This document shows positions 41,618 through 58,083 of a stretch of DNA of 64,000 bases, piece by piece. The stretch comes from an uncultured Alphaproteobacteria bacterium (GTDB taxonomy: Bacteria > Pseudomonadota > Alphaproteobacteria > HIMB59 > GCA-002718135), in assembly GCA_902570155.1 (NCBI GenBank), contig CACFXU010000005.1:50529-114528 (forward strand). The letters run 5' to 3'. Every line of letters starts with the position of its first letter. Positions within the stretch are counted from its first letter, which is position 1. Made by a program: the position numbers and the translations under genes. The notes below the pieces were generated by a model. The model ran no database searches, was not told where the DNA came from, and saw only the letters and a list, made by a program, of their open reading frames with translations.

Positions 41618-43150
41618 TTAAAGTTCTTGATACTTTTCAGCACCGTAATTTGAATATACATCCCAATTAGGGAAGACCCAATCATCACGAGTTACATTAG
41701 CACCGTCTGCTCTTGCCTCTTCAACAGCTTTATCAAGAGCATCTTCATACCTTTGATTACAATCTTTAAGCTGTGCTTCCACACCTTTAAGTTGTCCAGT
41801 ATACAACCCTTGAATAACTAGAGCCAAAGAAGGATCTGGTACTCTAGACTTTGCAGCTACAATACCAACATCTTTATTTCTTACAATTGGATTAGGTCCA
41901 ACAAGTATGTTTTCAGCAAACATAGATAAAGCTTGTGCTGATGGTCCGGTTAAACCAGCTTTAGCAACTGCATCTGGATTAACAGCTGGATCTGCGGCAC
42001 CAACAGTTTGAGCCCAGTAAATTTGACCTTGCTCAGTTCCCATAAATCTAATCAGATCACCAGCAAATGGTCCCATTGTACTATTAGCACTTAACCAAAA
42101 TGTATTTGATCCACCTTCTGCAATGTAAAGTGGTTGCGCTTCTTTTCCATCTGGAACTGGTTCACTTGCAATACCGTATTTCCAATTTGGAGCATCTCTA
42201 CCCCAAACTCCAATACACCAAGGACCCTGGAATATCATTCCTGCTGCACCTTGTGGCATCAAAGCTCTAGCTTGAGGAGCATTCATACTCATAACTCCTG
42301 GGAAAGCGCTACCATCTGATTTTAATTGAAGAAGTAATTCAACTGCTTCCATATATTGATCAGATGCAATTTGGAATTTACCATTCTGGAAGTTAATGTG
42401 TCTATTTGTAAAACCACCTCTTCCACTATGTGCTCCACCTACTTGTCCAAATGTATGGACAACATCTTCCCATCGATTAACTTGGTTTCCACCAATAATC
42501 CAACCATAATACTGACCATTACCATTTTTAGTAATTTTTTTAGCAGCATCTCTGATTTCAGAATATGTCATACGACCAGCTTGAGGATCATAACCAGCTT
42601 CACTCATATATTTTTCACTATACAGAAGACAAGTTCCCGTTCTCTTATTTGCTGTTAAACATGTTCCATAAGTCTTTCCATTGAATTGGTTGACACCAGG
42701 AAGATAAACACCACTAGGAAACGCACCTAACCATTCGTCGATATTTTCAATGTAGTCATCCCATGGTTGTACCCAACCCTCAGATACTGCAACACCAGGA
42801 TCCATTCCTATCGGTAATTGGAATACATCATGAACAGTTCCATTTCTTATAGCAATTGGAACAATTTTATTTATTTCTTTCCATGGCAAACCATCGTATT
42901 CAATAGTGATACCTCTTGAAGCTGCATATTCTGGAAAAAGTTTTTTCCAAAAGACACCTTTCATGTCACCACTATCAATCCATCGCATATTACCGCCAGT
43001 TGTTGGTAATGGTTTTAGTGGATCAGGAATATTAAATTCTCCAGCAAATAGTTTTGAAGGAATAGATCCTGCTGACATCATTGCACCCGCAGCAAGAGCT
43101 CCTTTCATAACTGTACGTCTAGAGATTTTTAAATCTTTTTTCTTCTTCAT
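41618..43150 (-). CDS. Tat-exported carbohydrate ABC substrate-binding protein
   Basis: Twin-arginine signal ISRRTVMKG plus hydrophobic stretch, NGKTYG, FQGPW; upstream of two CUT1 permeases; GGGAGG SD. Confidence 0.85.
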   Translation of the reverse strand: MKKKKDLKISRRTVMKGALAAGAMMSAGSIPSKLFAGEFNIPDPLKPLPTTGGNMRWIDSGDMKGVFWKKLFPEYAASRGITIEYDGLPWKEINKIVPIAIRNGTVHDVFQLPIGMDPGVAVSEGWVQPWDDYIENIDEWLGAFPSGVYLPGVNQFNGKTYGTCLTANKRTGTCLLYSEKYMSEAGYDPQAGRMTYSEIRDAAKKITKNGNGQYYGWIIGGNQVNRWEDVVHTFGQVGGAHSGRGGFTNRHINFQNGKFQIASDQYMEAVELLLQLKSDGSAFPGVMSMNAPQARALMPQGAAGMIFQGPWCIGVWGRDAPNWKYGIASEPVPDGKEAQPLYIAEGGSNTFWLSANSTMGPFAGDLIRFMGTEQGQIYWAQTVGAADPAVNPDAVAKAGLTGPSAQALSMFAENILVGPNPIVRNKDVGIVAAKSRVPDPSLALVIQGLYTGQLKGVEAQLKDCNQRYEDALDKAVEEARADGANVTRDDWVFPNWDVYSNYGAEKYQEL

Positions 43151-43171
43151 TAATTCCTCCCTATTTGCATT

Positions 43172-43189
43172 TTATTTTACGTGAAATAA
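43172..43189. promoter_or_regulatory. palindromic candidate operator or leader hairpin in the divergent SBP/gloA spacer
   Basis: TTATTTTACGTGAAATAA, 16 of 18 positions self-complementary, flanked by TTTGC...GCAAA. Confidence 0.3.
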
Positions 43190-43243
43190 GCAAAATAACA
43201 ATTGAAAATAAATTTAAAATTATGTTAATATTTGTCAGTTTAT

Positions 43244-43669
43244 ATGAAATATTTACACACAATGGTGAGGGTTGAGAACATTGATGCTTCCCTAGATTTT
43301 TACTGTAACAAACTTGGATTAAAAGAGGTGCGACGAGTTGACAATGAAAAAGGTCGTTTTACCTTAATATTTTTAGCTGCTGAAAATAGTGATGAAAGAA
43401 CGGGTCTTCTTGAATTAACCTATAATTGGGATCCTGAAAAATATACTGGGGGAAGAAACTTTGGTCATCTAGCTTACAGTGTTAACAATATTTATGAAGT
43501 GTGTGAGAAATTAATGAACAACGGCGTTACAATTAATAGACCACCTCGTGATGGACATATGGCTTTTGTTCGCTCTCCCGATGGAATTTCCATTGAGATA
43601 TTACAAGAAGGGGAATCTTTACCAGAACAGGAACCATGGAAGTCTATGGAAAATTCTGGAAGCTGGTAA
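43244..43669 (+). CDS. gloA: lactoylglutathione lyase (glyoxalase I, VOC family)
   Basis: YLHTMVRV, ELTYNWD, NFGHLA, SPDGISIE; ATG 43244 preferred. Confidence 0.85.
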   Translation: MKYLHTMVRVENIDASLDFYCNKLGLKEVRRVDNEKGRFTLIFLAAENSDERTGLLELTYNWDPEKYTGGRNFGHLAYSVNNIYEVCEKLMNNGVTINRPPRDGHMAFVRSPDGISIEILQEGESLPEQEPWKSMENSGSW

Positions 43670-43670
43670 T

Positions 43671-44903
43671 TTATAAAGCTAGTTGTTTTTTTCCTAAAGG
43701 AGTTAAGTCGTCAATTGTAGCTCTGTTTTTATAAGTTACTTCATAATCCTCAGCTGCAAAATCAGGTGGGCTTTTTCCCTCGATAAATTTTTTAGATTGC
43801 TTTTGAGCATAAGCTAAATTTTTTTCACAGTAAGGTGTGGATCCAACATACACGACATTTGAATAACCTGTTCCAGAATGATGATCTTCCACTGCATGAA
43901 CTACATCTGGATGCCACCACACTGTATCTCCTGCATTCATTTTTGGAATTGAAACTAATCCTCTTAATAAAAGAGAGTGATACGTCGAATTAACAGATAA
44001 TGCTCTTGCTGGTTTAGAACCACATAATTCATTTTGATTTACATCCTCCATTAAGGCTCTTGTTAAAATAAAAGCCATGGACTTTGCTATTGGTATTAAT
44101 TGAAGTGTACCATCTCCAGGACCTTGTTGAGTTAAAGCAACCCAACCTTGAAAGGTTCTAAAGACATGACTAACAGCGGGAGATTCTATTTCTTTAGTTT
44201 TATTTCTATAAGAAGCATTAAAAGGATCATATTCTAGAAATTTATCAGAAAAAACTTTTTCGTAAACTGATTGATACCCTTTATCTATCCACCTTTCAAC
44301 TGAGCCAGCATCGCAGTGAGGTGACAATCCTAAAGTTGAGTCTCCGGGTTCTCTTCTTCGAATACGATCAGCATAAACAAGTTCTTGATTAGGATCAAAA
44401 ATTACTTCATCTTTATTTTTGTTGATCCAAAGATTATTTAACCATTTTTTTACTACATCCATTTCAGCAGATTGTCTTATTTGCACTTGTGTTTTTGACC
44501 AATACAATCCAAATATCTGCGGTTTACCTGATTTTAATTCACTGAAATATTTATCCAAGTCAGCTTTTTTCTTTTGATCTTCATAATAATTATTTTCTTC
44601 AATATAATTTTCTAAATCTTTGTTCATTTTATGCATCATACTATCTTCAAAAACATCTCTAATAATGACACAACCTTTTTGTTTAACTTCTCTTTCAAAT
44701 TCTTCTGTATTTGAATTTAAGTCTTGGAATTTAATCTCTGGAATAATTTGTTTATTGTTTTTCTTTAAGTCTTCTATTTTTATAATTTCACTCAAAATAT
44801 ATTTTTCAATTTTTGAAAAATTTTCTCTAAAATCCTTTGATTTATTTCTTAAAATATTTTTTTCTTTAATAATTATGTCTTCAATATTTTTTAAATCAAT
44901 CAT
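43671..44903 (-). CDS. DUF1479 (YbiU/Gig2-like) Fe(II)/2OG-fold protein
   Basis: PQIFGLYWS..QV, YADRIRRREPG, LSPHCDAGSVERW, FRTFQGW, WHPDVVHAVE. Confidence 0.85.
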   Translation of the reverse strand: MIDLKNIEDIIIKEKNILRNKSKDFRENFSKIEKYILSEIIKIEDLKKNNKQIIPEIKFQDLNSNTEEFEREVKQKGCVIIRDVFEDSMMHKMNKDLENYIEENNYYEDQKKKADLDKYFSELKSGKPQIFGLYWSKTQVQIRQSAEMDVVKKWLNNLWINKNKDEVIFDPNQELVYADRIRRREPGDSTLGLSPHCDAGSVERWIDKGYQSVYEKVFSDKFLEYDPFNASYRNKTKEIESPAVSHVFRTFQGWVALTQQGPGDGTLQLIPIAKSMAFILTRALMEDVNQNELCGSKPARALSVNSTYHSLLLRGLVSIPKMNAGDTVWWHPDVVHAVEDHHSGTGYSNVVYVGSTPYCEKNLAYAQKQSKKFIEGKSPPDFAAEDYEVTYKNRATIDDLTPLGKKQLAL

Positions 44904-44910
44904 AATTCAA

Positions 44911-45888
44911 TTAAATTTTTACTTTATAATATTTTTCAGGATTAGTTGCCAAAGCTATAACAGATGGAAGAACAAGTCTATAAAATTCAAATAAGCTTTT
45001 GAAAGGTTTAGGTAATTGATCGTCTATTTCTTTTCTTAATTTTTTAAGATTATAGGAAGGTATCATCGGGAACATATGATGTTCTAAATGATATTCCATA
45101 TGCCAATAAAGAAAACTTAATATTGGGTTTATTCGTACAGAGTAAGTGCTTAAGCGGTGATCTTTTGTGTCAACTTTAGCTGCTAGATGTTGAGTCACAT
45201 TAACAGCAAACCAAATTGGCTTCCCAATATAAGTTGGTAAAATAATATAAATTATTGGTAAGAAAGAACCTAAGTAAAAAGAATATATAATAACTGCTAA
45301 CCAAATAAAAACATATAATCTTGAGTTCCAAAGAATTTTTTTCTTTTCTTCTTTAGGTGCTGTTATATCAATAACTGGAGTGAATTTTCCAAAAGCATGT
45401 TTTAAAACTTCAAATTTAATTAATTTATGTGGGTACAATAAATCTGTTAGAGGTATAAAATTCAAAAAGAATGCAAATAATTCTATCGGTCTTGATACTT
45501 GAATTTCGTGATCATAATCATCTTGGGTTTGTAATGTTTTTGAATGATGAAAAGTATGACTCCAGCGCCATCTAAAACCTTCAAAGTCACACATGAAAGA
45601 ACTGATGTGGTAAAAAAATTCATTTATCCAACGAGTCTTGAATGCAGTTCGATGAACAGTTTCATGCCAGTTTGCTACACTGAACGCATAAATTGTACCA
45701 TAAATAAAAAAGAATAGATATGTCCACCACGTACCTAAAGTAATGTATGCTAAATATCCTGAAATAAATAAAGATAAAAAATAAAAGAAGAAATGGATTA
45801 GTCCAGGTAGATCTCTTCTTTTACTTAAGGCTTTTAATTTTTTTCTGTCGACTTCTGGTCTGTACCAATCATCGAGATTAACTTCCAT
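44911..45888 (-). CDS. fatty acid desaturase superfamily di-iron membrane enzyme, MocD-like
   Basis: His boxes HETVH, HTFHH, HLEHH plus TQH; N-terminus WY...RK..K.L..R.D resembles MocD. Confidence 0.8.
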   Translation of the reverse strand: MEVNLDDWYRPEVDRKKLKALSKRRDLPGLIHFFFYFLSLFISGYLAYITLGTWWTYLFFFIYGTIYAFSVANWHETVHRTAFKTRWINEFFYHISSFMCDFEGFRWRWSHTFHHSKTLQTQDDYDHEIQVSRPIELFAFFLNFIPLTDLLYPHKLIKFEVLKHAFGKFTPVIDITAPKEEKKKILWNSRLYVFIWLAVIIYSFYLGSFLPIIYIILPTYIGKPIWFAVNVTQHLAAKVDTKDHRLSTYSVRINPILSFLYWHMEYHLEHHMFPMIPSYNLKKLRKEIDDQLPKPFKSLFEFYRLVLPSVIALATNPEKYYKVKI

Positions 45889-45902
45889 GCTTGATAATTA
45901 AA

Positions 45903-46838
45903 TTAGTTATCCCAACGATCTAACCATGACCCATCAACTGTAGAGTCAAATTGGTCTTTTTTTGAAGTCCCTCTAAATTTAGTGTGTTCTTCTTCATAAC
46001 CTTTAAACCAAGAATCCCAATCAGCTGTATAGCTTGGGTCTTCTGATTTTCTCATTATGATTGGATCAACCAAACCAGTATGAAAACCAGCTTCATCTTT
46101 TGGATTTTGAAATCTTAGGTCAACACTCCATCTTACATCCTCAGATAAATTTTCAAGTGATCGATGAGGAACTAATTGATGTAAAAATAAAACTGAACCA
46201 GCCTTCATTTCACAAGTAACGACTTTCTCCTCTGGAATATCTTTGTCTTCAATAAATAAATACCAAGAATCTTTTACTGAACCATCTTTCTTTTCTAATT
46301 TATGATTCAAAACTCTTTCAGGTCTATGTCCTCCAGGAACAACTTGCATGCATCCATTATTTTTATTTACATCTAGAAATGGAATCCACGCAGCAGGCTG
46401 AGTAGTTTTTTCTGCTCCATCTTTTAAATAAGCAGAATCTTGGTGCCATGGAACTGTCATCCTAGCTGTCTGAGGTGTTTTAGATCTAATATTCCAAACT
46501 GGATGACCAGAAATATCTTTGCCCACCCAATTTTCAACCATATCTAAAAGTTTTTTTGATCCCCATAAGTTAGCAAGTGCTGGTTTCAATTCACCTCTAT
46601 GATGAATTAAAACTGAAGAACCTTTAAAATCTTTTTCGAGAGCAGCTAGTCTTTTAAAAACATCTTTATCATCATGTTTGTTTGTAATTTTTCCAGCTTG
46701 AAAAGCTTTTTCTGCAAAATCATCAACAATTTCTTCAAATTCATTTAATATTGGATTTAACTCATCCATACTAAAAACATTTTCAACGATCGTATAACCT
46801 TCTTCGTTATATTGTTTTATTTGCGCATCACTAATCAT
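45903..46838 (-). CDS. PhyH-family Fe(II)/2-oxoglutarate dioxygenase
   Basis: QYNEEGYTIV, VPWHQD, NGCMQVVPGGH, PHRS..N.S..VRWSVDLRF; GGGAGG SD precedes ATG 46838. Confidence 0.88.
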   Translation of the reverse strand: MISDAQIKQYNEEGYTIVENVFSMDELNPILNEFEEIVDDFAEKAFQAGKITNKHDDKDVFKRLAALEKDFKGSSVLIHHRGELKPALANLWGSKKLLDMVENWVGKDISGHPVWNIRSKTPQTARMTVPWHQDSAYLKDGAEKTTQPAAWIPFLDVNKNNGCMQVVPGGHRPERVLNHKLEKKDGSVKDSWYLFIEDKDIPEEKVVTCEMKAGSVLFLHQLVPHRSLENLSEDVRWSVDLRFQNPKDEAGFHTGLVDPIIMRKSEDPSYTADWDSWFKGYEEEHTKFRGTSKKDQFDSTVDGSWLDRWDN

Positions 46839-46852
46839 AATTCCTCCCAAAA

Positions 46853-47590
46853 TTATCCATTTACTAATAAATCAGTGAGATGATCTATTGTTGTATCCTT
46901 TTTATCCAAATCAGCAATTTTTTCGCCTCTTGCCATTACACATAAATGATCAGCAATTGGATACACATGACTCAAGTTGTGAGTAATAAATATTGATGTC
47001 ACGCCTTGGCTTTTTAATCCTTCTACAAACCTTAGTACTTTATTTGTTTCTTTTACTGATAAGTGGTTTGTTGGTTCGTCTAATATTAAAACTTTTGATT
47101 TAAAATACATTGCTCTTGCAATCACAACACCTTGTCTTTCTCCTCCAGACAATTGGTTAACTGGTGTATCAGGAGATCGAAGATGCAGTTCAACATCTGT
47201 TAATGCTTTCATCGCATCGTCCTGCATGGTTTTAGTTTTCATTAAACCAAAATTGCCAACATTATATTGAGTTTGTTCACGTCCAATAAAAATATTTCTT
47301 GCAATAGACATTTCAGGGATCAAAGCCGAATACTGATAAATTGTTTCAATACCTAAATTCATTGCTTCTTTTGTAGATTTAAATTTAACCTTATTACCTT
47401 CAAAATATATATGACCTGAGTCAGGTTGATGTGCACCAGATAAGATTTTAATTAATGTTGATTTACCAGCACCATTGTCTCCAATAAGACCAACAACAGA
47501 GTCTTTTTTTATCTTTAAGCTTAAATCTTTTAAAGCATGAACTCCTGAATAGTATTTGTTTAGACCCTCACAAACTATTATATCTTCCAT
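46853..47590 (-). CDS. sugar ABC ATPase (CUT2, single NBD)
   Basis: GDNGAGKST, LSGGERQ, LDEPT. Confidence 0.93.
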   Translation of the reverse strand: MEDIIVCEGLNKYYSGVHALKDLSLKIKKDSVVGLIGDNGAGKSTLIKILSGAHQPDSGHIYFEGNKVKFKSTKEAMNLGIETIYQYSALIPEMSIARNIFIGREQTQYNVGNFGLMKTKTMQDDAMKALTDVELHLRSPDTPVNQLSGGERQGVVIARAMYFKSKVLILDEPTNHLSVKETNKVLRFVEGLKSQGVTSIFITHNLSHVYPIADHLCVMARGEKIADLDKKDTTIDHLTDLLVNG

Positions 47591-47592
47591 CT

Positions 47593-48573
47593 TTAATCCT
47601 TTGCCTTGTTTTGACCAATTCGTGTCGCTCTTCTACTTATATAAGTATTAAACACTACGGCTATGATAATTAAAGAACCTAAACCTGCTCTAAACCATTC
47701 CGCATCTATTCTAGCCATAATGATTCCACTTTCTAAAAACCTAATTAGTATTGCGCCAATAACGGCACCAAAAACTGTTCCGATACCTCCAAATAAACTG
47801 ACACCGCCAATAACTGCTGCAGCAATTGACTCTAGTTCTAATAAGTATCCTTGAGATGGTAATGGTGCTTCCAATCTAAATGTTTGAATCATTCCAGCAA
47901 AGCCAGCTAAGAAACCACATAAGATGAAACAAAACATTTTAACGTTTCCAGTCTTTATTCCCATTGAAGATGCTGCGTTTTGATCTCCGCCAGTTGCATA
48001 GATCCAGTTACCAACATTACTTCTGTGAAGCATAACACCTAAAACCACGGCAACTAAAAGAGCCCAGTACAAGGACGCTCTAAATAACTCAAATTGATAA
48101 ACGAATAACTCATTTGGTAAAATATGAGGAAATGGTGGTGGAAATCCTGCAGTAGCTACAGTTGTAAGACTTCTAGCAATATAGAGCATTCCAAGAGTTG
48201 CGATGAAAGAAGGAATACCAAATCTTAAGGTAATAAATCCATTAACAAAACCAACAATAATACCAATCATTAATCCTAGAAAAATAGCGAACCAAGGTGG
48301 TATCCCTTGATGCACCATTTGTACAATAGTCATAGGGACTAATGCAAAAACAGAGCCTACAGATAAATCAAATTCACCTGAGATCATTAATATTGCAATC
48401 CCAATAGCAACAATAATATATTCGGGTGTAATACCCATAACTATTCTTATATTTCTTGCATCTAAAAATCTTTCATTAGCAATATAAAATCCAATCATTA
48501 TTGCTAGAAACATTAAGAAGGTTGCTACTTCTGGTCTTACTAATAAACTTCTAAGACTAAAATTTTTACTCAT
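47593..48573 (-). CDS. sugar ABC permease (RbsC-like)
   Basis: SGEFDLSVG, IPSFIATLG, IAAAVIGGVSLFGG. Confidence 0.93.
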   Translation of the reverse strand: MSKNFSLRSLLVRPEVATFLMFLAIMIGFYIANERFLDARNIRIVMGITPEYIIVAIGIAILMISGEFDLSVGSVFALVPMTIVQMVHQGIPPWFAIFLGLMIGIIVGFVNGFITLRFGIPSFIATLGMLYIARSLTTVATAGFPPPFPHILPNELFVYQFELFRASLYWALLVAVVLGVMLHRSNVGNWIYATGGDQNAASSMGIKTGNVKMFCFILCGFLAGFAGMIQTFRLEAPLPSQGYLLELESIAAAVIGGVSLFGGIGTVFGAVIGAILIRFLESGIIMARIDAEWFRAGLGSLIIIAVVFNTYISRRATRIGQNKAKD

Positions 48574-48587
48574 ATTTTTTTTATTTT

Positions 48588-48621
48588 AAAAAAAACCAGG
48601 CTCTATTTAAAGAGCCTGGTT
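48588..48621 (-). terminator. intrinsic terminator-like hairpin between binding-protein and permease genes
   Basis: aaccaggctct-atttaa-agagcctggtt (48594-48621) followed by a U-tract on the minus strand. Confidence 0.78.
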
Positions 48622-48628
48622 AAGATAT

Positions 48629-49594
48629 TTATCTAACTGACATTCCTTTGAATGATCTGATTGTTTCAACATCATCAGGACCAATCATAGCTTTACCAGT
48701 GTTGATATCTAGTGCACTTAAACCATACTTGTTCATTAAGTATAATTGGTGAACTGACATGTAACCTTGGTAGTATGGTTGTTGGTCAACTGTTAGTTGA
48801 ACATAACCTTTGTCCATTTCTTCGAAAACTACGTCAACTAAGTCAAAACCAGCAAGAAGTATTTCACCAGGTCCGTAACCTAAGTTTCTTACTGCTGCAG
48901 CTGCACCAGCTTCCCAGAAACCTACATCAAGATATGCAGTTGTATTTGGGTTAGCTTGAACATAAGCTGCCACTCTGTTTCCAACAGTTGAAAGATCTAG
49001 ACCTGACTCAATTTTCTCATAAGTTACTTTTCTATCAGGGTTAGCTGCTTTGTAATCTTCCATGAAACGTGCAATACCGTTTCCTCTAGTGTATGCCCAT
49101 GATTGGTTCATGTCTGCAACACCGATTAGAACGTGAATATCTCCATCAGGAAACATTTCAGAAAGATTAGCTGTTAATTCATAACCAGCTGCTTCTAAGT
49201 CTTGTCCAACATATGCTAGTCTGTTACTACCAGCAGCACCTTCTGGATCATCAGTATTAGCTGTAATTACTGGAATACCAGCAGCTAATGCTTCATCAAC
49301 TGCAGCATCAAAGATAGTTGGGTTAGTAATTGTAGTTACGATACCATCAACACCTTGAGCTATTGAAGACTCTAAGTTTTGTAATTGCTCTTGTTGGTCT
49401 CCATCACCTGAAAGAGTTAACATTTGGCAATCAGCATTAATTTGTGCACAAGCATCTTTAAAACCTTTGTGAACAGCTGCCCAGAAAGCATTGTTCGTAT
49501 CACTGTGCATTACGAAGTTAAATTTGTATTCTGCCTTCGCTGAAGTAGCAAAAAGTGCTACAGAGGCAAGAATAATTGAAGCAATTTTTTTCAT
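48629..49594 (-). CDS. sugar/polyol ABC substrate-binding protein (RbsB-like)
   Basis: Signal peptide AKA, NAFWAAV, GIPVITAN, YVGQD, VDQQPYYQGY; AGGAGG SD. Confidence 0.9.
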   Translation of the reverse strand: MKKIASIILASVALFATSAKAEYKFNFVMHSDTNNAFWAAVHKGFKDACAQINADCQMLTLSGDGDQQEQLQNLESSIAQGVDGIVTTITNPTIFDAAVDEALAAGIPVITANTDDPEGAAGSNRLAYVGQDLEAAGYELTANLSEMFPDGDIHVLIGVADMNQSWAYTRGNGIARFMEDYKAANPDRKVTYEKIESGLDLSTVGNRVAAYVQANPNTTAYLDVGFWEAGAAAAVRNLGYGPGEILLAGFDLVDVVFEEMDKGYVQLTVDQQPYYQGYMSVHQLYLMNKYGLSALDINTGKAMIGPDDVETIRSFKGMSVR

Positions 49595-49617
49595 GCATTC
49601 CTCCTATAAATAATATT

Positions 49618-49646
49618 TTCCTAGCAAGAATGGGTATGTAAAACAA
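49618..49646 (-). promoter_or_regulatory. candidate sigma70 promoter of the SBP operon
   Basis: TTGTTT-N17-TAGGAA on the minus strand, TG just upstream of -10; a weak match in AT-rich DNA. Confidence 0.25.
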
Positions 49647-49705
49647 GGAGAAATATTGGGAATTAGGCTGTAAAATTATCGCACTAATCAATAGCTAAGC
49701 AAAAT

Positions 49706-50857
49706 TTATATTTTTTTTAGGATTTGCCTTATGAAATCGTCATGCATGGGTTCAGGCTTCACACACGAAGAACGGAGCTCTACTTCCACTTTATAAATTG
49801 AAGAAATCATAGCACATTCAATTACATCTAAAACGTGAAGAGCAAGTTCTCCATTACACCTATGCATTCTATTATTTTCGATGGCGTCAATCATTTCAGC
49901 TAACCCAATACCCCTGTAGTTTGCTTGTTCAGGCGCTTCATTACTTCTTCCACTATGGTTAACAATATTTGTTTTTCCAAGGGGTTTATCTTCGACGCTA
50001 ATATCTTTCCATTCAGATCCAAACTCACCAGATATGGAAACTGGACCACCAAACATATTTGGATCAGGAACTACTATTGAACCTTTCGTTCCATAAAGCT
50101 CCATATGATTACGTTTATGATTTAAAACATCAAATGAAATGAAACCTTGAATGATAGCTTTATTTTGAAACTCAATATTAAACATATAAGAAGTTGGAAT
50201 TTCAACATTAAAAGTTTCTCCTTTTTTTGGACCAGCTTTGTATTCTCTTTTATCAGAAAATTTAGCTCCTCTTCCTCTTATATTTTTTACAGGACCTAGA
50301 AGATTAACAAGGGTGGTGAAAAAATATGGACCCATATCTATTACAGGTCCTCCTCCTTCTTGAAACCAAGACTCAGGACTTGGATGAAAATCTTGAACGC
50401 CAGGAAAAGCAAATATAAAATTACCAGTTAGAACTTGTCCAATATCATTGTTGTCAATTAAATTTCGTGTAAGTTGCCCTCCCCCTCCTAAAAAAGTATC
50501 TGGTGCATTCCCAATGTAGAGACTATTTTTTTTTGCTAAATTTAATAATTCTTTTGCTTCATCAAACTTAACACTCATTGGTTTTTCACAATAAACATGT
50601 TTGTTTGACTCAATAGCTCTTTTAGATATTTCATAATGCGCTTGGGGAATTGTGAGATTAAGAATGATGTCTACATTCTTGTCATTAAGTATTTCATCAA
50701 CTGATAAAGGAATAATATTATATTGATCAGCTGTTTTTTTAGCGGCATCTAAATTAATATCAGCACAAGCAACAAAATTTATATTGTTAAAATATTCCTG
50801 AGCCCGAAAGTAGGTCTCTGCGATATTACCACAACCAATTAGACCAATATTTTTCAT
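49706..50857 (-). CDS. Gfo/Idh/MocA family oxidoreductase (paralog of 23675-24820)
   Basis: GLIGCGNIA, CEKP, APDTFLG, GGGPVIDMGPY, ANYRGIG. Confidence 0.9.
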   Translation of the reverse strand: MKNIGLIGCGNIAETYFRAQEYFNNINFVACADINLDAAKKTADQYNIIPLSVDEILNDKNVDIILNLTIPQAHYEISKRAIESNKHVYCEKPMSVKFDEAKELLNLAKKNSLYIGNAPDTFLGGGGQLTRNLIDNNDIGQVLTGNFIFAFPGVQDFHPSPESWFQEGGGPVIDMGPYFFTTLVNLLGPVKNIRGRGAKFSDKREYKAGPKKGETFNVEIPTSYMFNIEFQNKAIIQGFISFDVLNHKRNHMELYGTKGSIVVPDPNMFGGPVSISGEFGSEWKDISVEDKPLGKTNIVNHSGRSNEAPEQANYRGIGLAEMIDAIENNRMHRCNGELALHVLDVIECAMISSIYKVEVELRSSCVKPEPMHDDFIRQILKKI

Positions 50858-50896
50858 AAATTGTTTCTATAAATCAATTGTAAAAAATGGAATAGT

Positions 50897-50929
50897 AAAA
50901 AAAAAGGCCGTAAAAAATTACGGCCTTTT
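50897..50929 (-). terminator. intrinsic terminator after the binding-protein gene
   Basis: aaaaggccgtaa-aaaa-ttacggcctttt (50902-50929) with a long U-tract on the minus strand. Confidence 0.8.
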
Positions 50930-50949
50930 AAAAATAATTTTGCTTAGAT

Positions 50950-51867
50950 CTACATAAAGTCTGCAGCGTTTTCTTTAGTAACTAATACAGTTCCAGTATC
51001 AATGTTATCTGGAATGCTCTCACCATTAGCTAATTTAAGTGCATTTTCTACACCCATGTATCCCATATTGTATGAGAATTGAGCAATAGTTGCTGACATT
51101 TCACCAGCCATTACACTTGCAGCAGCATCAGGGTTAGCATCAAATCCAACAACGACAACATCATCTAGCATATCAGCATTTTTTAATGCTTGGATAGCAC
51201 CTAGACCCATATTATCGTTAGAAGCAAAGATTGCTTTTAGATTTGGGTTACCAGTGATGATATCTTCCGTTACTGACATACCTTGTGCAGTATCCCAGTT
51301 AGCTGGAAGTTCAGCAACAATGTTCATGCCACATGCTTCAAGACCTTTGTGTGATCCTTCAGCTCTGTGTTGACCAGTAGTTTGCGTGATCATTCCTTGA
51401 AGGATTGCAACATCAGAACCACTTGGAACATTATCACAAATGTATTGAGCAGCTAAAGCAGCACCATTGATATTGTTTGTACCAATGAAAGTTACACCTT
51501 CATTAATTCCATTAGTATCAATGTATACAACTGGAACACCTGAAGCCATTGCATCATCAAGAATTGGTGCAACTGCGTTAGGGTCAGTTGGTGCAATCGC
51601 TATACCGTCTACACCTTTAGCAATTTGGTCTTCAATTTGCGCTACCTGAGCCATAACATCACTCTCTTGTGGTGGTGAAAGGATAATAAGGTTTACACCT
51701 AATTCTTCAGCAGCATCTTTAGCACCAGCTTCAACTGAAGCCCAAAAAGGGTTTCCAGCACCTGGTCCTTTAGTACTTAGCATAATTGTTTTTGCATGTG
51801 AGCCTGCTAAAAGACTACCTGAAAAAAACAATACAGAAGTAGTAATTATAGAAATAAAAAATTTCAT
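50950..51867 (-). CDS. sugar ABC substrate-binding protein (RbsB-like)
   Basis: NPFWASVEAG, IFASNDNMGLG, VVGFD, IDTG; AGGAGG SD. Confidence 0.92.
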   Translation of the reverse strand: MKFFISIITTSVLFFSGSLLAGSHAKTIMLSTKGPGAGNPFWASVEAGAKDAAEELGVNLIILSPPQESDVMAQVAQIEDQIAKGVDGIAIAPTDPNAVAPILDDAMASGVPVVYIDTNGINEGVTFIGTNNINGAALAAQYICDNVPSGSDVAILQGMITQTTGQHRAEGSHKGLEACGMNIVAELPANWDTAQGMSVTEDIITGNPNLKAIFASNDNMGLGAIQALKNADMLDDVVVVGFDANPDAAASVMAGEMSATIAQFSYNMGYMGVENALKLANGESIPDNIDTGTVLVTKENAADFM

Positions 51868-51892
51868 TTTTCCTCCTAAAATTTTTTTCTAA

Positions 51893-51936
51893 CCATTAAT
51901 CAAAAATGAATTTCTAATCAAGTGACTGTTTGTCAG
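51893..51936 (-). promoter_or_regulatory. candidate internal promoter with an abutting TGAC-N5-GTCA palindrome
   Basis: Minus strand CTGAC-AAACA-GTCAC directly followed by TTGATT-N17-TAATGG, upstream of the SBP gene. Confidence 0.3.
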
Positions 51937-51956
51937 AAAATGATTATTTTTTGATA

Positions 51957-52964
51957 TTATGTTCTGGTTGCAAGTTGTCTTCTTAGAACATCGATATAAA
52001 CAGCCAAAATAATAATTGACCCAATAAGAACTTGTTGCCAAAAAACACTAACATTCATTAGATTTAGACCATTTCGGAGTATACCCATAATCATGACTCC
52101 AGCAAATACACCTAAAACAGTTCCTCTACCCCCAAAGAAGCTTGCTCCACCTATAATGACTGCTGCAATCGCATCTAGCTCAGATTGTAAACCAGCATTT
52201 GGATAAGCAGAATTCGTTCTTCCAGCTAAAATTAAACCTCCAATACCAGCCAAGAAACCACAAAGGGTGTAAACTACGATTAAAATTCGATCTACATTAA
52301 TACCTGCTGCCCTAGCTGCTCCTGGGTTACCTCCAATCGCATAAATCCATTTACCTATTCTTGTATGATTTAAAAATATCCAAAAGATAAAAAATATTAC
52401 AATCATTAAAATTAAACTTGTGGGTATATACTCTCTAGCGCCTTCTCCAAAAATTACATCTAGTTTAATTTTACCATTTCCTATAACTCGAATCTGTTCA
52501 GCAAAACCTGTTATTGGAACGCCTCCAGAAATAAGGTTTCCAATTCCTCTAAATATATAAAGCGTCCCTAGTGTCATTATGAATGGATGAGGCATTCGAA
52601 GTAAGGTAATTCCAATACCATTAAACATACCACACAAAAATCCAATTGCTGGGGCAACTAACATGACAACGTACCAAGGCATTCCTGCCTTCGAAGCAAT
52701 AGCGAGTCCCATTAATGATAACATAATAATTGAACCGACTGATAGATCTATACCTGCAGTTACAATGACCATAAAGACACCAAGTGCTAACATAGACTGC
52801 CAAGAAACTTGTTTAAAAATATTTGTTACATTTCTCCATGATAAAAAAACATCAGGTTGCAACAAATGCAAAACAGCTATCATTATTAGGATAAGTAATA
52901 AGATTCCATATCTTTCAAAAAAAGGAATAAGTCTGACAAATAAAGATTCTTGATTCTTATCCAT
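51957..52964 (-). CDS. sugar ABC permease (RbsC-like)
   Basis: AGIDLSVGS, PFIMTLG, ELDAIAAVIIGG; start 52964 coupled to the ATPase stop (TAATG). Confidence 0.93.
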   Translation of the reverse strand: MDKNQESLFVRLIPFFERYGILLLILIMIAVLHLLQPDVFLSWRNVTNIFKQVSWQSMLALGVFMVIVTAGIDLSVGSIIMLSLMGLAIASKAGMPWYVVMLVAPAIGFLCGMFNGIGITLLRMPHPFIMTLGTLYIFRGIGNLISGGVPITGFAEQIRVIGNGKIKLDVIFGEGAREYIPTSLILMIVIFFIFWIFLNHTRIGKWIYAIGGNPGAARAAGINVDRILIVVYTLCGFLAGIGGLILAGRTNSAYPNAGLQSELDAIAAVIIGGASFFGGRGTVLGVFAGVMIMGILRNGLNLMNVSVFWQQVLIGSIIILAVYIDVLRRQLATRT

Positions 52965-53710
52965 TAATCTTTTTTCCCCATGATCCATCCAATCACTTCG
53001 TCCCTTGAAGTGTTTTTTAATTCTGATTCAGCGAAGTTTGTTCCTTGAAAAAGTGCCATTACGCGATCACAAACAGTAAAAATATCATCCATTCGATGGC
53101 TAATTACTATTACACTAACACCTAACTTTTTAAGATTTAAAATTAAGTCTAAAACTTTCCCAACTTCCTTAACAGCAAGTGCTGCTGTTGGTTCATCCAT
53201 CAATACAATTTTTGCATTAAAAGCTGTAGCTCTAGCAATTGCAACTGCCTGTCTTTGTCCACCTGATAATTCTTCAACTTTTTGATCAGCACTTTTTACA
53301 TTTATTTTTAGTTTTGCAAGATGTTCTTCGGTTAACTGTTTTCTTTTTTTATGATCTAAAAAATTGAATGGACCAACTTTTCTTGTTGGTTCTCTTCCTA
53401 GAAAAATATTATCACCGATAGGGAGATTCCCAGCTAGCGCTAAATCTTGATATACCATTTCTAAGCCCAAATTTTGTGAGTCTCTGGGACTATTTAAAGT
53501 TACTTTTTCCTTATCAAAAAAAAGTGAACCTTCGCTTGGCTTATATAATCCTGATAAAACTTTCATTAATGTAGATTTCCCAGCACCGTTATCGCCGACG
53601 ACACCAAGAACCTCACCTTTATTTAAATGAAGATCTACATTTTGAAGAGCTGTAATAGTACCAAAAAATTTCGAAACTGATTTAGCTTCTAGTACTAAGT
53701 TATCTGACAT
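52964..53710 (-). CDS. sugar ABC ATPase (CUT2, single NBD)
   Basis: GDNGAGKST, LSGGQRQ, MDEPTAAL. Confidence 0.93.
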   Translation of the reverse strand: MSDNLVLEAKSVSKFFGTITALQNVDLHLNKGEVLGVVGDNGAGKSTLMKVLSGLYKPSEGSLFFDKEKVTLNSPRDSQNLGLEMVYQDLALAGNLPIGDNIFLGREPTRKVGPFNFLDHKKRKQLTEEHLAKLKINVKSADQKVEELSGGQRQAVAIARATAFNAKIVLMDEPTAALAVKEVGKVLDLILNLKKLGVSVIVISHRMDDIFTVCDRVMALFQGTNFAESELKNTSRDEVIGWIMGKKD

Positions 53711-53730
53711 AGTGTGTTTTTAAATAAATT

Positions 53731-54759
53731 TTAATTAATATCAACTGGTTTTGAACGTAAATACTTAACAGTTTCTCTTTCAGCTTTTTTGCATAATTTA
53801 GGAGGCAGGCCTTTTGAAATAAGTTTTAAATCTTGAATTACTAATTCACCCATCTCTTTAAACGCGCTGTCTAATGCGCCGGCTCTATGTGGAGAAAAAA
53901 TTACATTTTTGAGTTTTCTTAATTTATGTTTTTTAGGAAATGGTTCTTGTGGAAAAACATCAATGGCAGCAAACACATTTCTATTTTTCAAAAAATTAAA
54001 AAAATCATCAAAATTTATTATGGCTGCTCTACTCATTAAGACAAACACTGATCCATCTTTTATTAATTTAAGTTTAGAAGAATTAATCATTGATTCATTA
54101 GAGGAAGTAATGGAAGCCAATACATAAATGATATCAGCATTTTTGAGTAACGAATTTAAACTGGTTGGCTTAACATCAAATTTTTCGATTTCTTTATTGG
54201 GAATCCAAGGATCATAGGCAATGATGTTATTAGAGAATGCTTTGAGTATAGGAATAAGTGATTTAGCTAAATCACCAAAACCAATTAAACCAAATGTTTT
54301 ATTTTTTATTAAAAAATTATTCTGACTTATTGCACCACCATATTTTTCTTTTTTTGAAATAAAGTCTGAGTGAGCAATATGGATACTTCTAGCTATAGAT
54401 AAAGTAAGACCCATTGCCATTTCAGCAACAGGTTGAGCAAACACAGGCGATGTTGCTAAAACATGTATTCCTTTTCTAAAACAATAATCGTAATCCATAT
54501 TGTCCATAAAATTGCTTTCTACATTAAATATTGCTTTAAGTTTTGTAGATTTAGAAATTAAGGATGAAGGTAAATTGGGTTGCCCAAAGATATATTCTGC
54601 CTTTGGTAAATTTTTTTCATAAAAATTATTTTTATTTTTATTTGGGGCAGTAATAAGTTTAAAATTATTTTTTAAGTATTTTAAATTTTCTTTAGAAAAA
54701 AGTAGGTCCATTGTTCTTGGATATGGATCTAATAAAATTATAGGCTTGTTTTGACTCAT
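53731..54759 (-). CDS. D-isomer-specific 2-hydroxyacid dehydrogenase family protein
   Basis: GLIGFGDLA, YDPW, SRAA, DVFPQEP, SPHRAG. Confidence 0.88.
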   Translation of the reverse strand: MSQNKPIILLDPYPRTMDLLFSKENLKYLKNNFKLITAPNKNKNNFYEKNLPKAEYIFGQPNLPSSLISKSTKLKAIFNVESNFMDNMDYDYCFRKGIHVLATSPVFAQPVAEMAMGLTLSIARSIHIAHSDFISKKEKYGGAISQNNFLIKNKTFGLIGFGDLAKSLIPILKAFSNNIIAYDPWIPNKEIEKFDVKPTSLNSLLKNADIIYVLASITSSNESMINSSKLKLIKDGSVFVLMSRAAIINFDDFFNFLKNRNVFAAIDVFPQEPFPKKHKLRKLKNVIFSPHRAGALDSAFKEMGELVIQDLKLISKGLPPKLCKKAERETVKYLRSKPVDIN

Positions 54760-54795
54760 ACAATTTTTAAAATTTAGAAAAAGAAATTTATTTTT

Positions 54796-56640
54796 TTATA
54801 CGCCCTTACGTTGTTTATTTTTTCCTTCTAAAAATTCGTTAAGAGCTGATTTCTTACCTTCGGTATCATCCACTTCAAGTGTTGGACTTTCCCAAAAAGC
54901 TGTTCCTTCTAACCATTCATATCCATCTGTTTTCATAGAAATTACGTATGTTTTGTCTGATTCTTTTGCTCTTTTGAAAGCAGCCTCTAATTCTGAAATA
55001 GATTTAACAGTCTCACCATTTGCCCCCATACTTTTTGCGTGAGCTTCAAAATCTACAAACTGTACATTTGTCGCTCTTGCAGCATTGAGATTGCAAAGAT
55101 ATTCATTGCCACCTTTTGCTAATTGCAATCTATTGATAACCATGTGACCACCATTATCACAAACAACTATAATTAATTTTTTATCATATAAAACTGAACT
55201 GTAGATATCGCTGTTTTGTAAGAGGTATGAACCATCGCCTACAAATACAATTACATCTTGTTCAGGTTTTGCCATTTTGATTCCAAGTGCACCTGATATT
55301 TCATAACTCATGCAACTAAACCCCCATTCAGTTTCAAAGGTATTTAGTTCTTTAGGTTTCCATATTTGAACCACTTCTCCAACTAACCCTCCAGCTGCAG
55401 TGACCACAATATCTGATGGATCTGAGTTTCTATAAACTGCACCTACAGCATGAGCATAGGATGGTAATTCTTGATTTGTTGGTCCACTTTCTTTGGCAAC
55501 ATATTCATCCCATTTATTTCTTTCCTCAATTGAACGCTGGTACCAATTATCTGGTGCTTTCCAATCTCCTAATGCTTTTGATAATTCTTGAAGTCCAATT
55601 TTTGCATCACTTACAACAGGAGTAGCGCGATGTTTTGTAGTATCAAATCGTGAAGTATTTATTGATACAAGTTGAAAATTTTCATTTTCAAAATTAGTCC
55701 AAGAGCCAGTTGTAAAGTCTCCTAACTTTGTTCCCACAGCTAGTGCTAAATCTGTATCGGTAGCAAGGTTATTAGATGAGCCTTCCCCTAAGCATCCAAT
55801 TGCACTTATATAATAAGGATCATCTTTTTTCATACAACCAATACCCATCACAGTTGCTGTTACAGGAATATTATGTTTTTTTGCAAAAGCGGAAATCTCC
55901 CCTTCTGCTTCTGAATATAAAACACCTCCACCTGAAATAATAATAGGTTGTTTAGATTGTTTTAATTTATCAGCTGCCTTTTGTATTTGATTTGGATCAG
56001 GATGAATTCTTCTAATTTCATGAATTTTTTCTTCAAAAAAAATTTCAGGATAATCATACGCTTCTCCTTGAACATCTTGAGACATAGAAATTACTGCTGG
56101 GCCACAGTCTGCAGGATCAAGCATTACATTAATTGCTTGAGGTAAAGATGTTAAAATTTGTTCAGGTCTAGTAATTCGATCAAAATATCTTGATACAGAT
56201 TTAAATGAATCATTTTGAGTTTCTGAAGGAGAATTAAAATGTTCTACTTGTTGTAAAACAGGATCCGGAAAACGACTAGAAAATGTATCACCTGGTAAAA
56301 GTAAAATTGGAAGTCTATTACTTAAAGCAACTGCAGCAGCTGTAACCATATTAGTAGAACCAGGTCCAACAGATGAAGTTGCTACAAATATTTGTTGTCT
56401 TCTTTTGGCACGAGCATATGCAATACCTGTTAGTGCCATATTTTGTTCATGATGACCTCTGTATCCAGGAAGTTCATTTTGATATTCTTCCATGGCTTGT
56501 CCAATACAAGCAACATTACCATGGCCATAAATACCGAAAGCACCTGGAAATAATGGTACTTTTTTTCCATTAATTAAAATTTTTTGCATAGTTAAATATT
56601 TAATTAATGCATGTGAACATGACATTCTAACTGTTTTCAT
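54796..56640 (-). CDS. iolD: 3D-(3,5/4)-trihydroxycyclohexane-1,2-dione acylhydrolase (TPP-dependent)
   Basis: GIYGHGNV, PGSTNMVTAAA, PDPVLQQ, RYFDRITRPEQ, GFSCMSYEI, VGDGSY. Confidence 0.92.
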   Translation of the reverse strand: MKTVRMSCSHALIKYLTMQKILINGKKVPLFPGAFGIYGHGNVACIGQAMEEYQNELPGYRGHHEQNMALTGIAYARAKRRQQIFVATSSVGPGSTNMVTAAAVALSNRLPILLLPGDTFSSRFPDPVLQQVEHFNSPSETQNDSFKSVSRYFDRITRPEQILTSLPQAINVMLDPADCGPAVISMSQDVQGEAYDYPEIFFEEKIHEIRRIHPDPNQIQKAADKLKQSKQPIIISGGGVLYSEAEGEISAFAKKHNIPVTATVMGIGCMKKDDPYYISAIGCLGEGSSNNLATDTDLALAVGTKLGDFTTGSWTNFENENFQLVSINTSRFDTTKHRATPVVSDAKIGLQELSKALGDWKAPDNWYQRSIEERNKWDEYVAKESGPTNQELPSYAHAVGAVYRNSDPSDIVVTAAGGLVGEVVQIWKPKELNTFETEWGFSCMSYEISGALGIKMAKPEQDVIVFVGDGSYLLQNSDIYSSVLYDKKLIIVVCDNGGHMVINRLQLAKGGNEYLCNLNAARATNVQFVDFEAHAKSMGANGETVKSISELEAAFKRAKESDKTYVISMKTDGYEWLEGTAFWESPTLEVDDTEGKKSALNEFLEGKNKQRKGV

Positions 56641-58023: not shown

Positions 58024-58083
58024 AAAAAATTTGTAAAATAAAATTGAATTAGAATAAATATTTTTTTTAAGAAAGTTGTTGAT

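Follow-up and report, generated by a model that had tools for sequence, protein, structure and literature searches.

Organization and setting of the gene cluster

What could an ABC importer and three different oxygenases, encoded one behind the other, do for a marine bacterium? This is the question raised by six genes at positions 43671-49594 of the window (the whole stretch of 64,000 nt analysed here). All lie on the minus strand and, according to Pfam, encode a substrate-binding protein (SBP), a permease, a half-size ATPase, a PhyH-family oxygenase, a protein of the FA_desaturase fold, and a DUF1479 protein. The host belongs to the SAR11 order and has a tiny genome of 1.5 Mb. The first-pass annotation had described this gene order with gaps of 2-14 nt from the permease through DUF1479, and the coordinates agree: 2 nt separate permease and ATPase, 14 nt ATPase and PhyH (assuming the PhyH start at ATG 46838), 14 nt PhyH and desaturase, and 7 nt desaturase and DUF1479. 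The SBP/permease gap of 55 nt contains a terminator-like hairpin on the minus strand (48594-48621; an 11-bp stem with six GC pairs, then a T run), which possibly serves as an attenuator between the two genes. The arrangement is not a product of chance: it is syntenic in relatives and recurs in metagenomes.

Directly upstream of the SBP gene lies a Gfo/Idh/MocA oxidoreductase gene (49706-50857, minus strand; Pfam), which is the probable dehydrogenase of the module given its synteny with the importer in relatives; it adjoins DUF1479 in other cassette types. It is preceded by a second ABC importer (50950-53710, minus strand; RbsB-like SBP, permease, and half-size ATPase by Pfam and NCBIfam), included here as context only, and by the gene for IolD, the ring-cleavage hydrolase of the inositol pathway (54796-56640, minus strand; TIGR04377, 769.6 bits, cut-off 715). 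Six genes separate IolD from the cassette, and IolD may be merely a fixed neighbour. On the other side, a convergent glyoxalase I-like gene (43232-43669, plus strand; TIGR00068, 118.7 bits against a cut-off of 120) forms the fixed right-hand border in every cassette variant seen. The interval from iolD to glyoxalase is a hot spot with cassettes of different kinds. Besides the iolD gene of the window, the genome has an iolE match that exceeds its cut-off, iolC and iolB matches that fall just short of theirs, and rhamnonate-type sugar-acid genes. The iol genes are scattered on three contigs and none is within the six-gene cassette; in one relative, the cassette sits within an iolC-iolB-aldolase-iolE cluster.

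The importer and the PhyH oxygenase

The SBP (48629-49594, minus strand) is a periplasmic protein of the Peripla_BP_4 sugar/cyclitol type (Pfam E 3.5e-43) with an N-terminal signal peptide, and its gene has an AGGAGG Shine-Dalgarno sequence ahead of the ATG. Among NCBIfam models, the rhizopine SBP NF052284 scores best, with only 98.5 bits against an equivalog cut-off of 420, so that the protein does not count as a rhizopine SBP by this model. Its best solved relatives are sugar SBPs, e.g., 2h3h (99 bits), 4ru1, and 4irx, and the ligands of solved relatives are plain sugars as well as inositol. The single permease gene (47593-48573, minus strand; BPD_transp_2, Pfam E 2.9e-42) has monosaccharide, ribose, and allose permeases as top NCBIfam models, none of them reaching its cut-off. 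The ATPase (46853-47590, minus strand; ABC_tran, Pfam E 7.1e-35) has one nucleotide-binding domain of 245 aa and is half the size of the RbsA/XylG type, as NCBIfam alignments cover the first ~240 of ~500 model positions. The SBP and permease thus fit a CUT2-type monosaccharide importer and the ATPase lacks the tandem-domain form of ~500 aa, which makes the importer a half-size variant within the CUT2 type.

The PhyH-family Fe(II)/2-oxoglutarate (2OG) oxygenase (45903-46838, minus strand; 311 aa) matches its Pfam family with E 9.7e-31 and 108 bits against a cut-off of 22. Its frame is open to 46850, and the start at ATG 46838 is supported by the 311-aa open frame of the relative G002. The strong Shine-Dalgarno sequence claimed in the first pass was found as GGGAGGA 5 nt before this ATG. 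Residues H132-Q-D134, H225, and R236 are invariant across seven subfamily members, i.e., the HxD...H triad and the 2OG-binding Arg are present. Homolog alignments likewise showed the metal motifs of the desaturase-like and DUF1479 proteins to be as intact as had been annotated.

Conservation of the importer with the PhyH-desaturase pair

What is conserved as a unit is the ABC importer together with the PhyH-desaturase pair. Orthologs of the two oxygenases are adjacent in all 15 genus genomes with PhyH (15 of 33 searched); the relatives are kin, so these counts are not independent. The importer lies upstream of the pair in all three fetched loci of relatives that hold it (L015, L016, and L017). 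Among 75 labelled marine metagenome loci, PhyH has a desaturase-family gene next to it in 50 and within three genes in 55, and within the latter distance are ABC parts (39 loci), PanB-like genes (21), and MocE-like Rieske genes (10). Furthermore, a high-GC alphaproteobacterium from a different family has an independent PhyH-SBP-permease-ATPase-FA_desaturase operon, along with the variants PhyH-FA_hydroxylase-permease-SBP and SBP-permease-ATPase-PhyH. Contigs from RNA libraries (metatranscriptomes) of four studies span the desaturase/PhyH, PhyH/ATPase/permease, and permease/SBP junctions.

In 8 of the 75 metagenome loci, proteins of the FA_hydroxylase family, which has an ether-cleaving member, replace or accompany the desaturase. 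The imported solute might then be something other than a carbohydrate, such as an amino-cyclitol, a methylated amine derivative, or an ether-linked glycerol compound, which the oxygenases would de-alkylate. Rhizopine is itself an inosamine, and an amidase is present in one distant PhyH cassette. However, the SBP, permease, and ATPase all best match monosaccharide-type systems and the neighbouring genes encode sugar and cyclitol enzymes, and we regard a solute of this kind as rather improbable.

The MocD-type di-iron protein and its possible electron supply

The desaturase-like protein (44911-45888, minus strand; PF00487, Pfam E 3.5e-34) is predicted to be a membrane di-iron oxygenase. Its three His boxes (H75xxxH79, H111xxH114H115, and H267xxH270H271) are common to a rhizobial protein that was named MocD by its depositor (P0125), with which it shares 36% identity over 320 aa (E 1e-67), and it is 36-41% identical to 281 plasmid records. 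These comparisons concern depositor-named homologs and homologs placed by PGAP context. Immediately behind the rhizobial homologs come a MocE-family ferredoxin, so named by PGAP, and an FAD reductase, an arrangement that, together with the identity to the depositor-named MocD, sustains the MocD-like label of the first pass. The operons of these homologs read desaturase-MocE-reductase-PanB-like-iolG and adjoin a sugar ABC system and purU, which fits the release of a one-carbon unit. The curated NCBIfam lipid-desaturase models gave only 41.4 bits (DesB) and 22.4 bits (DesA) against cut-offs of 500, no solved-structure homolog was found at E <= 1, and in a tree built without a lipid-desaturase outgroup the protein forms its own orthogroup inside a SAR11-order clade. 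By sequence, it is probably of the rhizobial MocD type and is distinct from the curated lipid desaturases.

Lipid enzymes are the best-known representatives of the FA_desaturase and FA_hydroxylase folds, and the iolD-glyoxalase site is a hot spot with differing cassettes. Hence the oxygenases could have membrane lipids or some other cellular component as their target, with their place behind an importer a coincidence at a variable site. We consider this very improbable, given the low scores of the lipid-desaturase models, the recurrence of the ABC-importer link with non-orthologous parts in distant lineages, and the paralogs of the gene: the genome has five MocD-type genes, this one and four others, and every one of the five is within four genes of a similar ABC importer. 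Relatives have up to seven matches per genome.

The six-gene cassette contains no ferredoxin, reductase, or PanB-like gene. A pair of MocE-type ferredoxin and reductase genes is found 60 kb away in the same genome, beside two of the four other desaturase paralogs; this Rieske ferredoxin is the only one of its type in the genome and scores 136.1 bits against a cut-off of 136.15. A MocE-family match is present in 13 of the 15 cluster-bearing genomes. In the sister genus, 22 of 24 genomes have a desaturase homolog and only 2 of 24 a MocE-family match, so MocE is not a strict requirement of the desaturase family. An in vitro assay of a MocD-type enzyme was not found in the searched literature, so the chemistry of this type rests on rhizobial genetics.

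That chemistry might also be directed at ring or chain carbons. The oxygenases would then hydroxylate imported deoxy-cyclitols (algal osmolytes of the quercitol or cyclohexanetetrol type) or deoxy- or C-methyl sugars or cyclitols, and so yield inositols or hexoses. Weak NCBIfam matches include ectoine hydroxylase for PhyH and the guanitoxin arginine hydroxylase for the FA_desaturase fold, oxygenases in series suit serial hydroxylations, and the PanB-like neighbours of the paralogs could conceivably cut a C-hydroxymethyl branch in the reverse of the PanB reaction. On the other hand, the sole genetic precedent for the family, mocDEF, involves an O-methyl ether. We judge hydroxylation of this kind to be unlikely, although less so than a non-carbohydrate solute.

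DUF1479 as an optional gene

The last gene of the run (43671-44903, minus strand) encodes a DUF1479/Gig2-like oxygenase of Fe(II)/2OG type with a full-length match to PF07350 (E 2.4e-121; 405.7 bits, cut-off 27) and 400 bits to the solved structures 4rgk/7twc/7twe. Its ligands H196 and H331 are present in 7/7 homologs and D198 in 6/7. The gene is a gene-sized insertion: positions 43674-44916 are extra relative to G018, and close relatives have a clean absence of the same size. Moreover, DUF1479 follows the PhyH-desaturase pair in only 4 of the 15 genus genomes, is within three genes of PhyH in 4 of the 75 metagenome loci, and was not found in G264, a 96%-complete relative in which the PhyH gene is present. 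The first pass had made its proposal depend on co-conservation of the three oxygenases; the importer and the PhyH-desaturase pair do stay together, and DUF1479 does not share in this. It is an optional extra, carried by a minority of strains. The expectation that the locus would give DUF1479 a functional context was largely disappointed, since 71 of the 80 best DUF1479 loci are in an unrelated Pelagibacteraceae setting beside MsrB and glutaredoxin, and the context obtained here is weak and lineage-specific.

DUF1479 may widen the range of decorations that are removed or else be unrelated to the cassette. A passenger, i.e., a general-purpose oxygenase of the order that reached this site in some strains, is a serious alternative to which we give somewhat less than an even chance; the conserved setting of the 71 loci, the clean indel, and the result for G264 all point to it. 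Against it, DUF1479 in this lineage is always found within sugar/cyclitol cassettes, in three architectures. In addition, one distant homolog follows a CUT1 ABC system in a run of genes on one strand, another is flanked by a sugar SBP and a Gfo/Idh/MocA gene, and fungal homologs are sugar-regulated according to the tables of PMC4620465 and to the PDB name of 6akz.

Proposed function

The locus is most economically read as a module for the oxidative tailoring of one imported polar substrate, and its oxygenases probably demethylate or hydroxylate a modified cyclitol or (deoxy)sugar that the importer takes up. The first-pass interpretation thus stands for the MocD type and the importer with its pair, and falls for the trio as a unit and for the context of DUF1479. 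The best explanation is in our opinion a catabolic uptake-and-tailoring cassette whose chemistry, substrate class, and electron donor we infer, and we would put its chances at about even. The SBP would bind a polar, sugar-like solute in the periplasm, and a homodimeric permease with two copies of the half-size ATPase would import it. The soluble PhyH 2OG oxygenase and the membrane MocD-type di-iron oxygenase would each oxidise a C-H bond of the solute's decoration. The likeliest target is an O-methyl group, the hydroxylation of which would give an unstable hemiacetal that decays to formaldehyde and a free hydroxyl. The di-iron enzyme could obtain its electrons from the lone MocE-type Rieske ferredoxin and the partner reductase, whose genes are 60 kb away. 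Freed of its decoration, the cyclitol or sugar would enter an ordinary, dehydrogenase-led catabolism, via the adjacent Gfo/Idh/MocA protein and the genome's iol or sugar-acid routes.

Algae commonly produce methylated sugars and cyclitols. It is a tentative and rather doubtful extension that the multiplied cassettes (five here, with importer and MocD-type protein and often PhyH and a PanB-like protein) form a P450-independent toolkit, with which oligotrophs of the SAR11 order strip methyl groups from the methyl-sugars, methyl-deoxysugars, and cyclitols of algal origin that dissolved organic matter contains, and harvest one-carbon units.

Comparison with known systems

The DUF1479 protein shares its full-length match and metal ligands with the DUF1479/YbiU/Gig2 family (PF07350; 4rgk, 7twc, 7twe, 2csg, 2dbi, and 6akz), whereas its setting is lineage-specific. 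No function or substrate of any DUF1479/YbiU member was found in the searched literature, partly available as excerpts, and the locus offers only a weak lead for this family. The myo-inositol pathway is represented by the iolD, iolE, iolC, and iolB matches, but these are scattered outside the cassette. With the rhizopine genes mocCABR-mocDEF of Sinorhizobium meliloti L5-30 and Rhizobium leguminosarum, as described in excerpts of PMC10107442, the locus has in common a MocB-like SBP, a Gfo/Idh/MocA protein, and a MocD-type oxygenase, as well as the MocE-type ferredoxin and reductase (here elsewhere in the genome) and the link to the inositol pathway. In contrast to moc, the cassette has neither a MocR regulator nor a MocC-type TIM-barrel gene, the ferredoxin and reductase are encoded in trans, the ATPase is half-size, and the SBP scores far under the rhizopine equivalog cut-off. 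Moreover, the PhyH 2OG oxygenase is a constant partner here and is not mentioned for moc in the excerpts of PMC10107442.

In marine Bacteroidota, a cytochrome P450 with ferredoxin and reductase demethylates 6-O-methyl-D-galactose, according to excerpts of PMC6292453, PMC9400963, and PMC10033563. The P450 systems of polysaccharide-degrading Bacteroidota were the only carbohydrate-demethylating enzymes found in the searched literature, itself seen partly in excerpts. As far as those excerpts go, the proposed logic is shared, i.e., an algal sugar loses its methyl ether by oxidation, formaldehyde is released, and normal catabolism follows. Here, however, a membrane di-iron and a 2OG oxygenase would take the place of the P450, and an ABC importer of a free-living oligotroph that of a polysaccharide utilisation locus. 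If our proposal is true, the importer-PhyH-MocD-type unit would be a second, unrelated enzyme solution for demethylation, placed in the most abundant free-living bacteria of the ocean, and would give testable roles to the PhyH subfamily and to a family mislabelled as 'fatty acid desaturase'.

Organization, surroundings and RNA-library coverage of the cassette

The cassette at 43671-49594 on the minus strand comprises, by Pfam, a Peripla_BP_4 substrate-binding protein (SBP) with a signal peptide, one BPD_transp_2 permease gene, an ATPase of 245 aa with a single ABC domain, a PhyH-family oxygenase (ATG at 46838), an FA_desaturase-fold protein and a PF07350 protein (Gig2-like, formerly DUF1479). 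The intergenic spacings from the permease to DUF1479 are 2, 14, 14 and 7 nt according to the ORF coordinates, and the 14-nt gap 5' of PhyH holds only for the ATG at 46838. This start is preceded by GGGAGGA at a distance of 5 nt and is consistent with the PhyH open frame of 311 aa in the relative G002. The metal motifs of all three oxygenases are intact and are kept among the homologs. Gene order, close spacing, metal motifs and the Shine-Dalgarno sequence before PhyH were thereby confirmed as described in the first-pass annotation. In addition, an 11-bp hairpin with a T run was found between the SBP and permease genes. The structural model of PhyH, built from a 7-row alignment, had a mean pLDDT of 50.7, which is too low for a fold search, and the protein atlas offered only generic PhyH or 'ectoine dioxygenase' clusters for this protein.

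The genome of 1.5 Mb is 89% complete with roughly 33% GC, the window belongs to its contig 5, and the surroundings of the cassette form a sugar island. On the upstream side, Pfam and NCBIfam models identified a Gfo/Idh/MocA oxidoreductase, a second ABC importer, a 2-hydroxyacid dehydrogenase and IolD, the last above its equivalog cut-off. Further upstream (58084-60823) there are an FMN lactate dehydrogenase, an FAH-family hydrolase and an SDR, which resemble the last steps of the non-phosphorylative rhamnose/fucose route; the best model for the hydrolase is 2,4-didehydro-3-deoxy-L-rhamnonate hydrolase (387 bits, cut-off 500). Downstream, a glyoxalase-like gene in convergent orientation is accompanied by CUT1 importers and sulfatases. 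The segment 27936-39806 holds five sulfatase genes, two CUT1 ABC importers and another PhyH-family gene (29435-30355), which together represent a notable investment for a 1.5-Mb genome. Elsewhere in the genome, iolE exceeds its model cut-off, and iolC and iolB narrowly miss theirs. IolD was rejected as an operon member, because six genes intervene and iolD keeps its place whichever cassette is present. Cassettes of this kind concentrate between iolD and the glyoxalase-like gene, which marks this interval as a hot spot; there, relative G020 (L015, 14165-19780) has a PanB-like gene and two additional desaturase paralogs, and a different ABC importer replaces the second importer. The Rfam scan of 42000-58500 gave nothing but one sub-threshold match, to the enterobacterial sRNA STnc430 (50894-50975; 38.7 bits against 47), which overlies a terminator-like hairpin 3' of the second SBP gene and is almost certainly due to chance.

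The cassette stretch or part of it was present in at least 20 RNA-library runs from 12 studies, and contigs from four metatranscriptome runs of four studies were compared. Three of these four runs had single contigs across the desaturase/PhyH junction, and the PhyH/ATPase/permease and the ATPase/permease/SBP junctions were each spanned by one contig, bearing in mind that RNA libraries can contain DNA and that a contig over two genes does not prove one transcript. Expression of the core genes is thus moderately supported. The DUF1479 part was thinly covered, with several contigs diverging from the window near 44798-44830 and 45068, which is evidence neither for expression nor for absence. The word depth of the SBP was much higher in those runs and is unusable for ranking the genes.

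Conservation of the importer, PhyH and desaturase genes

A homolog of the desaturase was found in 53 of 57 relatives. The PhyH ortholog is present in 15 of 33 genus genomes and directly adjoins the desaturase ortholog in all 15, and the fetched loci of relatives share the order iolD-dehydrogenase-ABC2-Gfo-SBP-permease-ATPase-PhyH-desaturase-glyoxalase, so that co-conservation holds for the importer, PhyH and the desaturase. The PhyH subfamily is rare in the class (9/401 genomes at E <= 1e-25). Among 11 fetched places, importer operons hold PhyH at three, in two high-GC genomes of another family, as PhyH-SBP-permease-ATPase-FA_desaturase, PhyH-FA_hydroxylase-permease-SBP and SBP-permease-ATPase-PhyH. 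The desaturase of the first type groups with the rhizobial MocD type and not with that of the cassette in the 18-sequence tree, and therefore the PhyH-desaturase partnership recurs with non-orthologous parts.

The metagenome scan with the PhyH alignment yielded 210 relatives; 75 of the best 80 loci could be labelled, and the five unlabelled loci all have 52-55% identity. By comparing the neighbours of PhyH at the 75 loci, where counts are lower bounds because many contigs are short, a desaturase-family gene is adjacent at 50 and within three genes at 55, or at 58 when FA_hydroxylase is included. Within the same distance, ABC parts occur at 39 loci, a PanB-like gene at 21, a MocE-like Rieske gene at 10 and DUF1479 at four.

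DUF1479 as a variable member

The DUF1479 protein is a clear PF07350 member, with 405.7 bits to the Pfam family and 400 bits to the solved structures 4rgk/7twc/7twe. The conserved unit does not include it. The gene follows the PhyH-desaturase pair in only 4 of 15 cluster-bearing genomes, and it was not found in G264, a 96% complete relative with the PhyH gene. Compared with relative G018, 43674-44916 is a clean, gene-sized extra segment, flanked by a desaturase 3' end of only 83% identity and a glyoxalase side of 97%. Together with its four metagenome loci, these results show that the three oxygenases are not a co-conserved trio.

Beyond near-identical loci, the nearest relatives of the gene are from Pelagibacteraceae, which places the host among the oligotrophs of the SAR11 order. 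The best 80 DUF1479 loci in species genomes consist of 71 from Pelagibacteraceae and nine sugar/cyclitol cassettes of the host lineage, some of which probably belong to the same genomes as those compared here. In Pelagibacteraceae (locus L036, 5617-11784, and 70 similar loci, L037-L107), the fixed run FAD oxidoreductase-EamA-2-hydroxyacid dehydrogenase-deacetylase-like-MsrB-DUF1479 faces glutaredoxin and DUF2805, a second and unexplained context of the family. In the host lineage, DUF1479 occurs in three architectures, always with an adjacent glyoxalase-like gene. In the first it comes after PhyH-desaturase. In the second it comes after a different PhyH and a Gfo gene, some examples also having another desaturase and a PanB-like gene. 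The third, seen in one genome, is an ABC-desaturase-TIM barrel-Gfo-DUF1479 block next to iolC, iolB, an aldolase and iolE. Among the distant homologs, one follows a CUT1 ABC system in one strand run, and one is flanked by a sugar SBP and a Gfo/Idh/MocA gene. Moreover, in Neurospora a DUF1479 gene is listed as directly targeted by the cellulose regulators CLR-1 and CLR-2 (PMC4620465). From the cassette contexts, the neighbours of distant homologs and the Neurospora targets, a loose link to carbohydrate metabolism is plausible. The functional context that the locus was expected to supply for DUF1479 is weak and lineage-specific, as 71 of the best 80 loci lie elsewhere, and the cassette does not fix a function. 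The class-level PF07350 search matched 5/401 genomes, which may be an undercount, because the control matched 0/14 named genomes although E. coli was expected to match from the solved YbiU structures. No function for DUF1479 or YbiU was found in the literature searched, and the GIG2 papers retrieved concern fish immune genes only.

The MocD-type protein and its candidate electron donor

By sequence, the desaturase-like protein can probably be assigned to the MocD type. No curated lipid-desaturase model exceeded 41 bits, where the cut-offs are 500, and no solved structure matched at E <= 1. Matches were obtained in 281 plasmid records, mostly of Rhizobium/Sinorhizobium, with 36-41% identity over the full length. 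In the annotation of one record, the homolog (desaturase family protein) is the first gene of an operon and is followed by 'MocE family 2Fe-2S type ferredoxin', FAD oxidoreductase, PanB-like and iolG genes; the operon diverges from a group made up of a TIM-barrel gene, a sugar ABC system, purU and a Gfo/Idh/MocA gene. This homolog is 89% identical to a protein named MocD by its depositor, to which the cassette protein aligns with all three His boxes at 36% identity (E 1e-67), the comparison being with this protein and not with the experimentally studied L5-30 MocD. The earlier MocD assignment thus agrees with both the similarity and the rhizobial MocE/reductase operon context. The mocDEF genes are treated in PMC10107442, citing Bahar 1998 and Rossbach 1994; an assay of any MocD-type enzyme was not found in the literature searched. 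In the tree of 18 sequences, which had no lipid-desaturase outgroup, the SAR11-order desaturase proteins form one clade (100/99), and that of the cassette is an orthogroup of its own inside it (also 100/99).

The genome carries five desaturase paralogs (43-48% identity), each within four genes of an importer with Peripla_BP_4, BPD_transp_2 and half-size ATPase genes. The cassette is without electron-transfer genes of its own. On the same contig, 60 kb away, a paralog locus has the order desaturase-reductase-Rieske-PanB-like-desaturase-FA_hydroxylase and adjoins a lactonase, two sugar-acid dehydratases, and rhamnose-mutarotase-like and fuconolactonase-like genes. Its Rieske protein reaches 136.1 bits, where the MocE-family cut-off is 136.15. 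This MocE-type ferredoxin/reductase pair (contig positions 30300-31899) is the only one in the genome and would be the obvious source of electrons for each of the five paralogs. In the sister genus, the oxygenase occurs in 22/24 genomes and a MocE-type ferredoxin in 2/24.

The larger paralogous module there (contig positions 19339-36000, loci L203 and L013, ~60 kb before the cassette) is divergent from an SBP-ATPase-permease set and looks like a methyl-deoxyhexose route. It includes PhyH (260 aa), Gfo/Idh/MocA, rhamnose-mutarotase-like, fuconolactonase-like, PdxA, rhamnonate-dehydratase-like, ILVD-type dehydratase, lactonase, FA_hydroxylase, two desaturase, PanB-like, MocE-type Rieske and reductase genes. 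An FGGY sugar kinase in L203 (1354-2839) appears as two overlapping ORFs, with the C-terminal domain at 1354-2073 and the N-terminal domain at 2039-2839, and may reflect a frameshift or sequencing error. A third cassette, on contig 10 (7210-15536, L014), has the order desaturase-Gfo-ThuA-permease-ATPase-SBP-aldehyde dehydrogenase-desaturase.

Proposed function and comparison with known systems

The best-supported reading is an uptake-and-tailoring cassette. We hypothesize that a solute would be imported by the ABC system, that PhyH and the MocD-type enzyme would each oxidise a decoration of it, and that the product would pass to the Gfo/Idh/MocA dehydrogenase and the iol or sugar-acid routes. 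The substrate could be a cyclitol or a (deoxy)sugar, and the evidence is undecided between them: the iolD neighbour and the iol-cluster context of a relative's cassette point to the former, and genes of the rhamnonate and fuconate type near a paralog to the latter. The SBP scores far below the cut-off of the rhizopine SBP model. The characterised SAR11 binding proteins listed in the available part of PMC12358799 include no cyclitol-type SBP, so on this list no ligand can be assigned by homology. No bacterial pinitol demethylase was found in the literature, and no importer-PhyH-MocD-type module was described, for SAR11 or otherwise, in the literature searched, which excluded subscription journals and supplements; the available part of a 2007 metagenome paper only notes a mocD-like read, attributed to Rhizobiales (PMC1976395). 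As for the reaction, the main rival to the demethylation suggested in the first-pass annotation is that the PhyH and MocD-type enzymes hydroxylate deoxy or C-methyl compounds. Demethylation is favoured, as one-carbon genes (PanB-like, purU) accompany members of the family and the moc precedent concerns an O-methyl ether.
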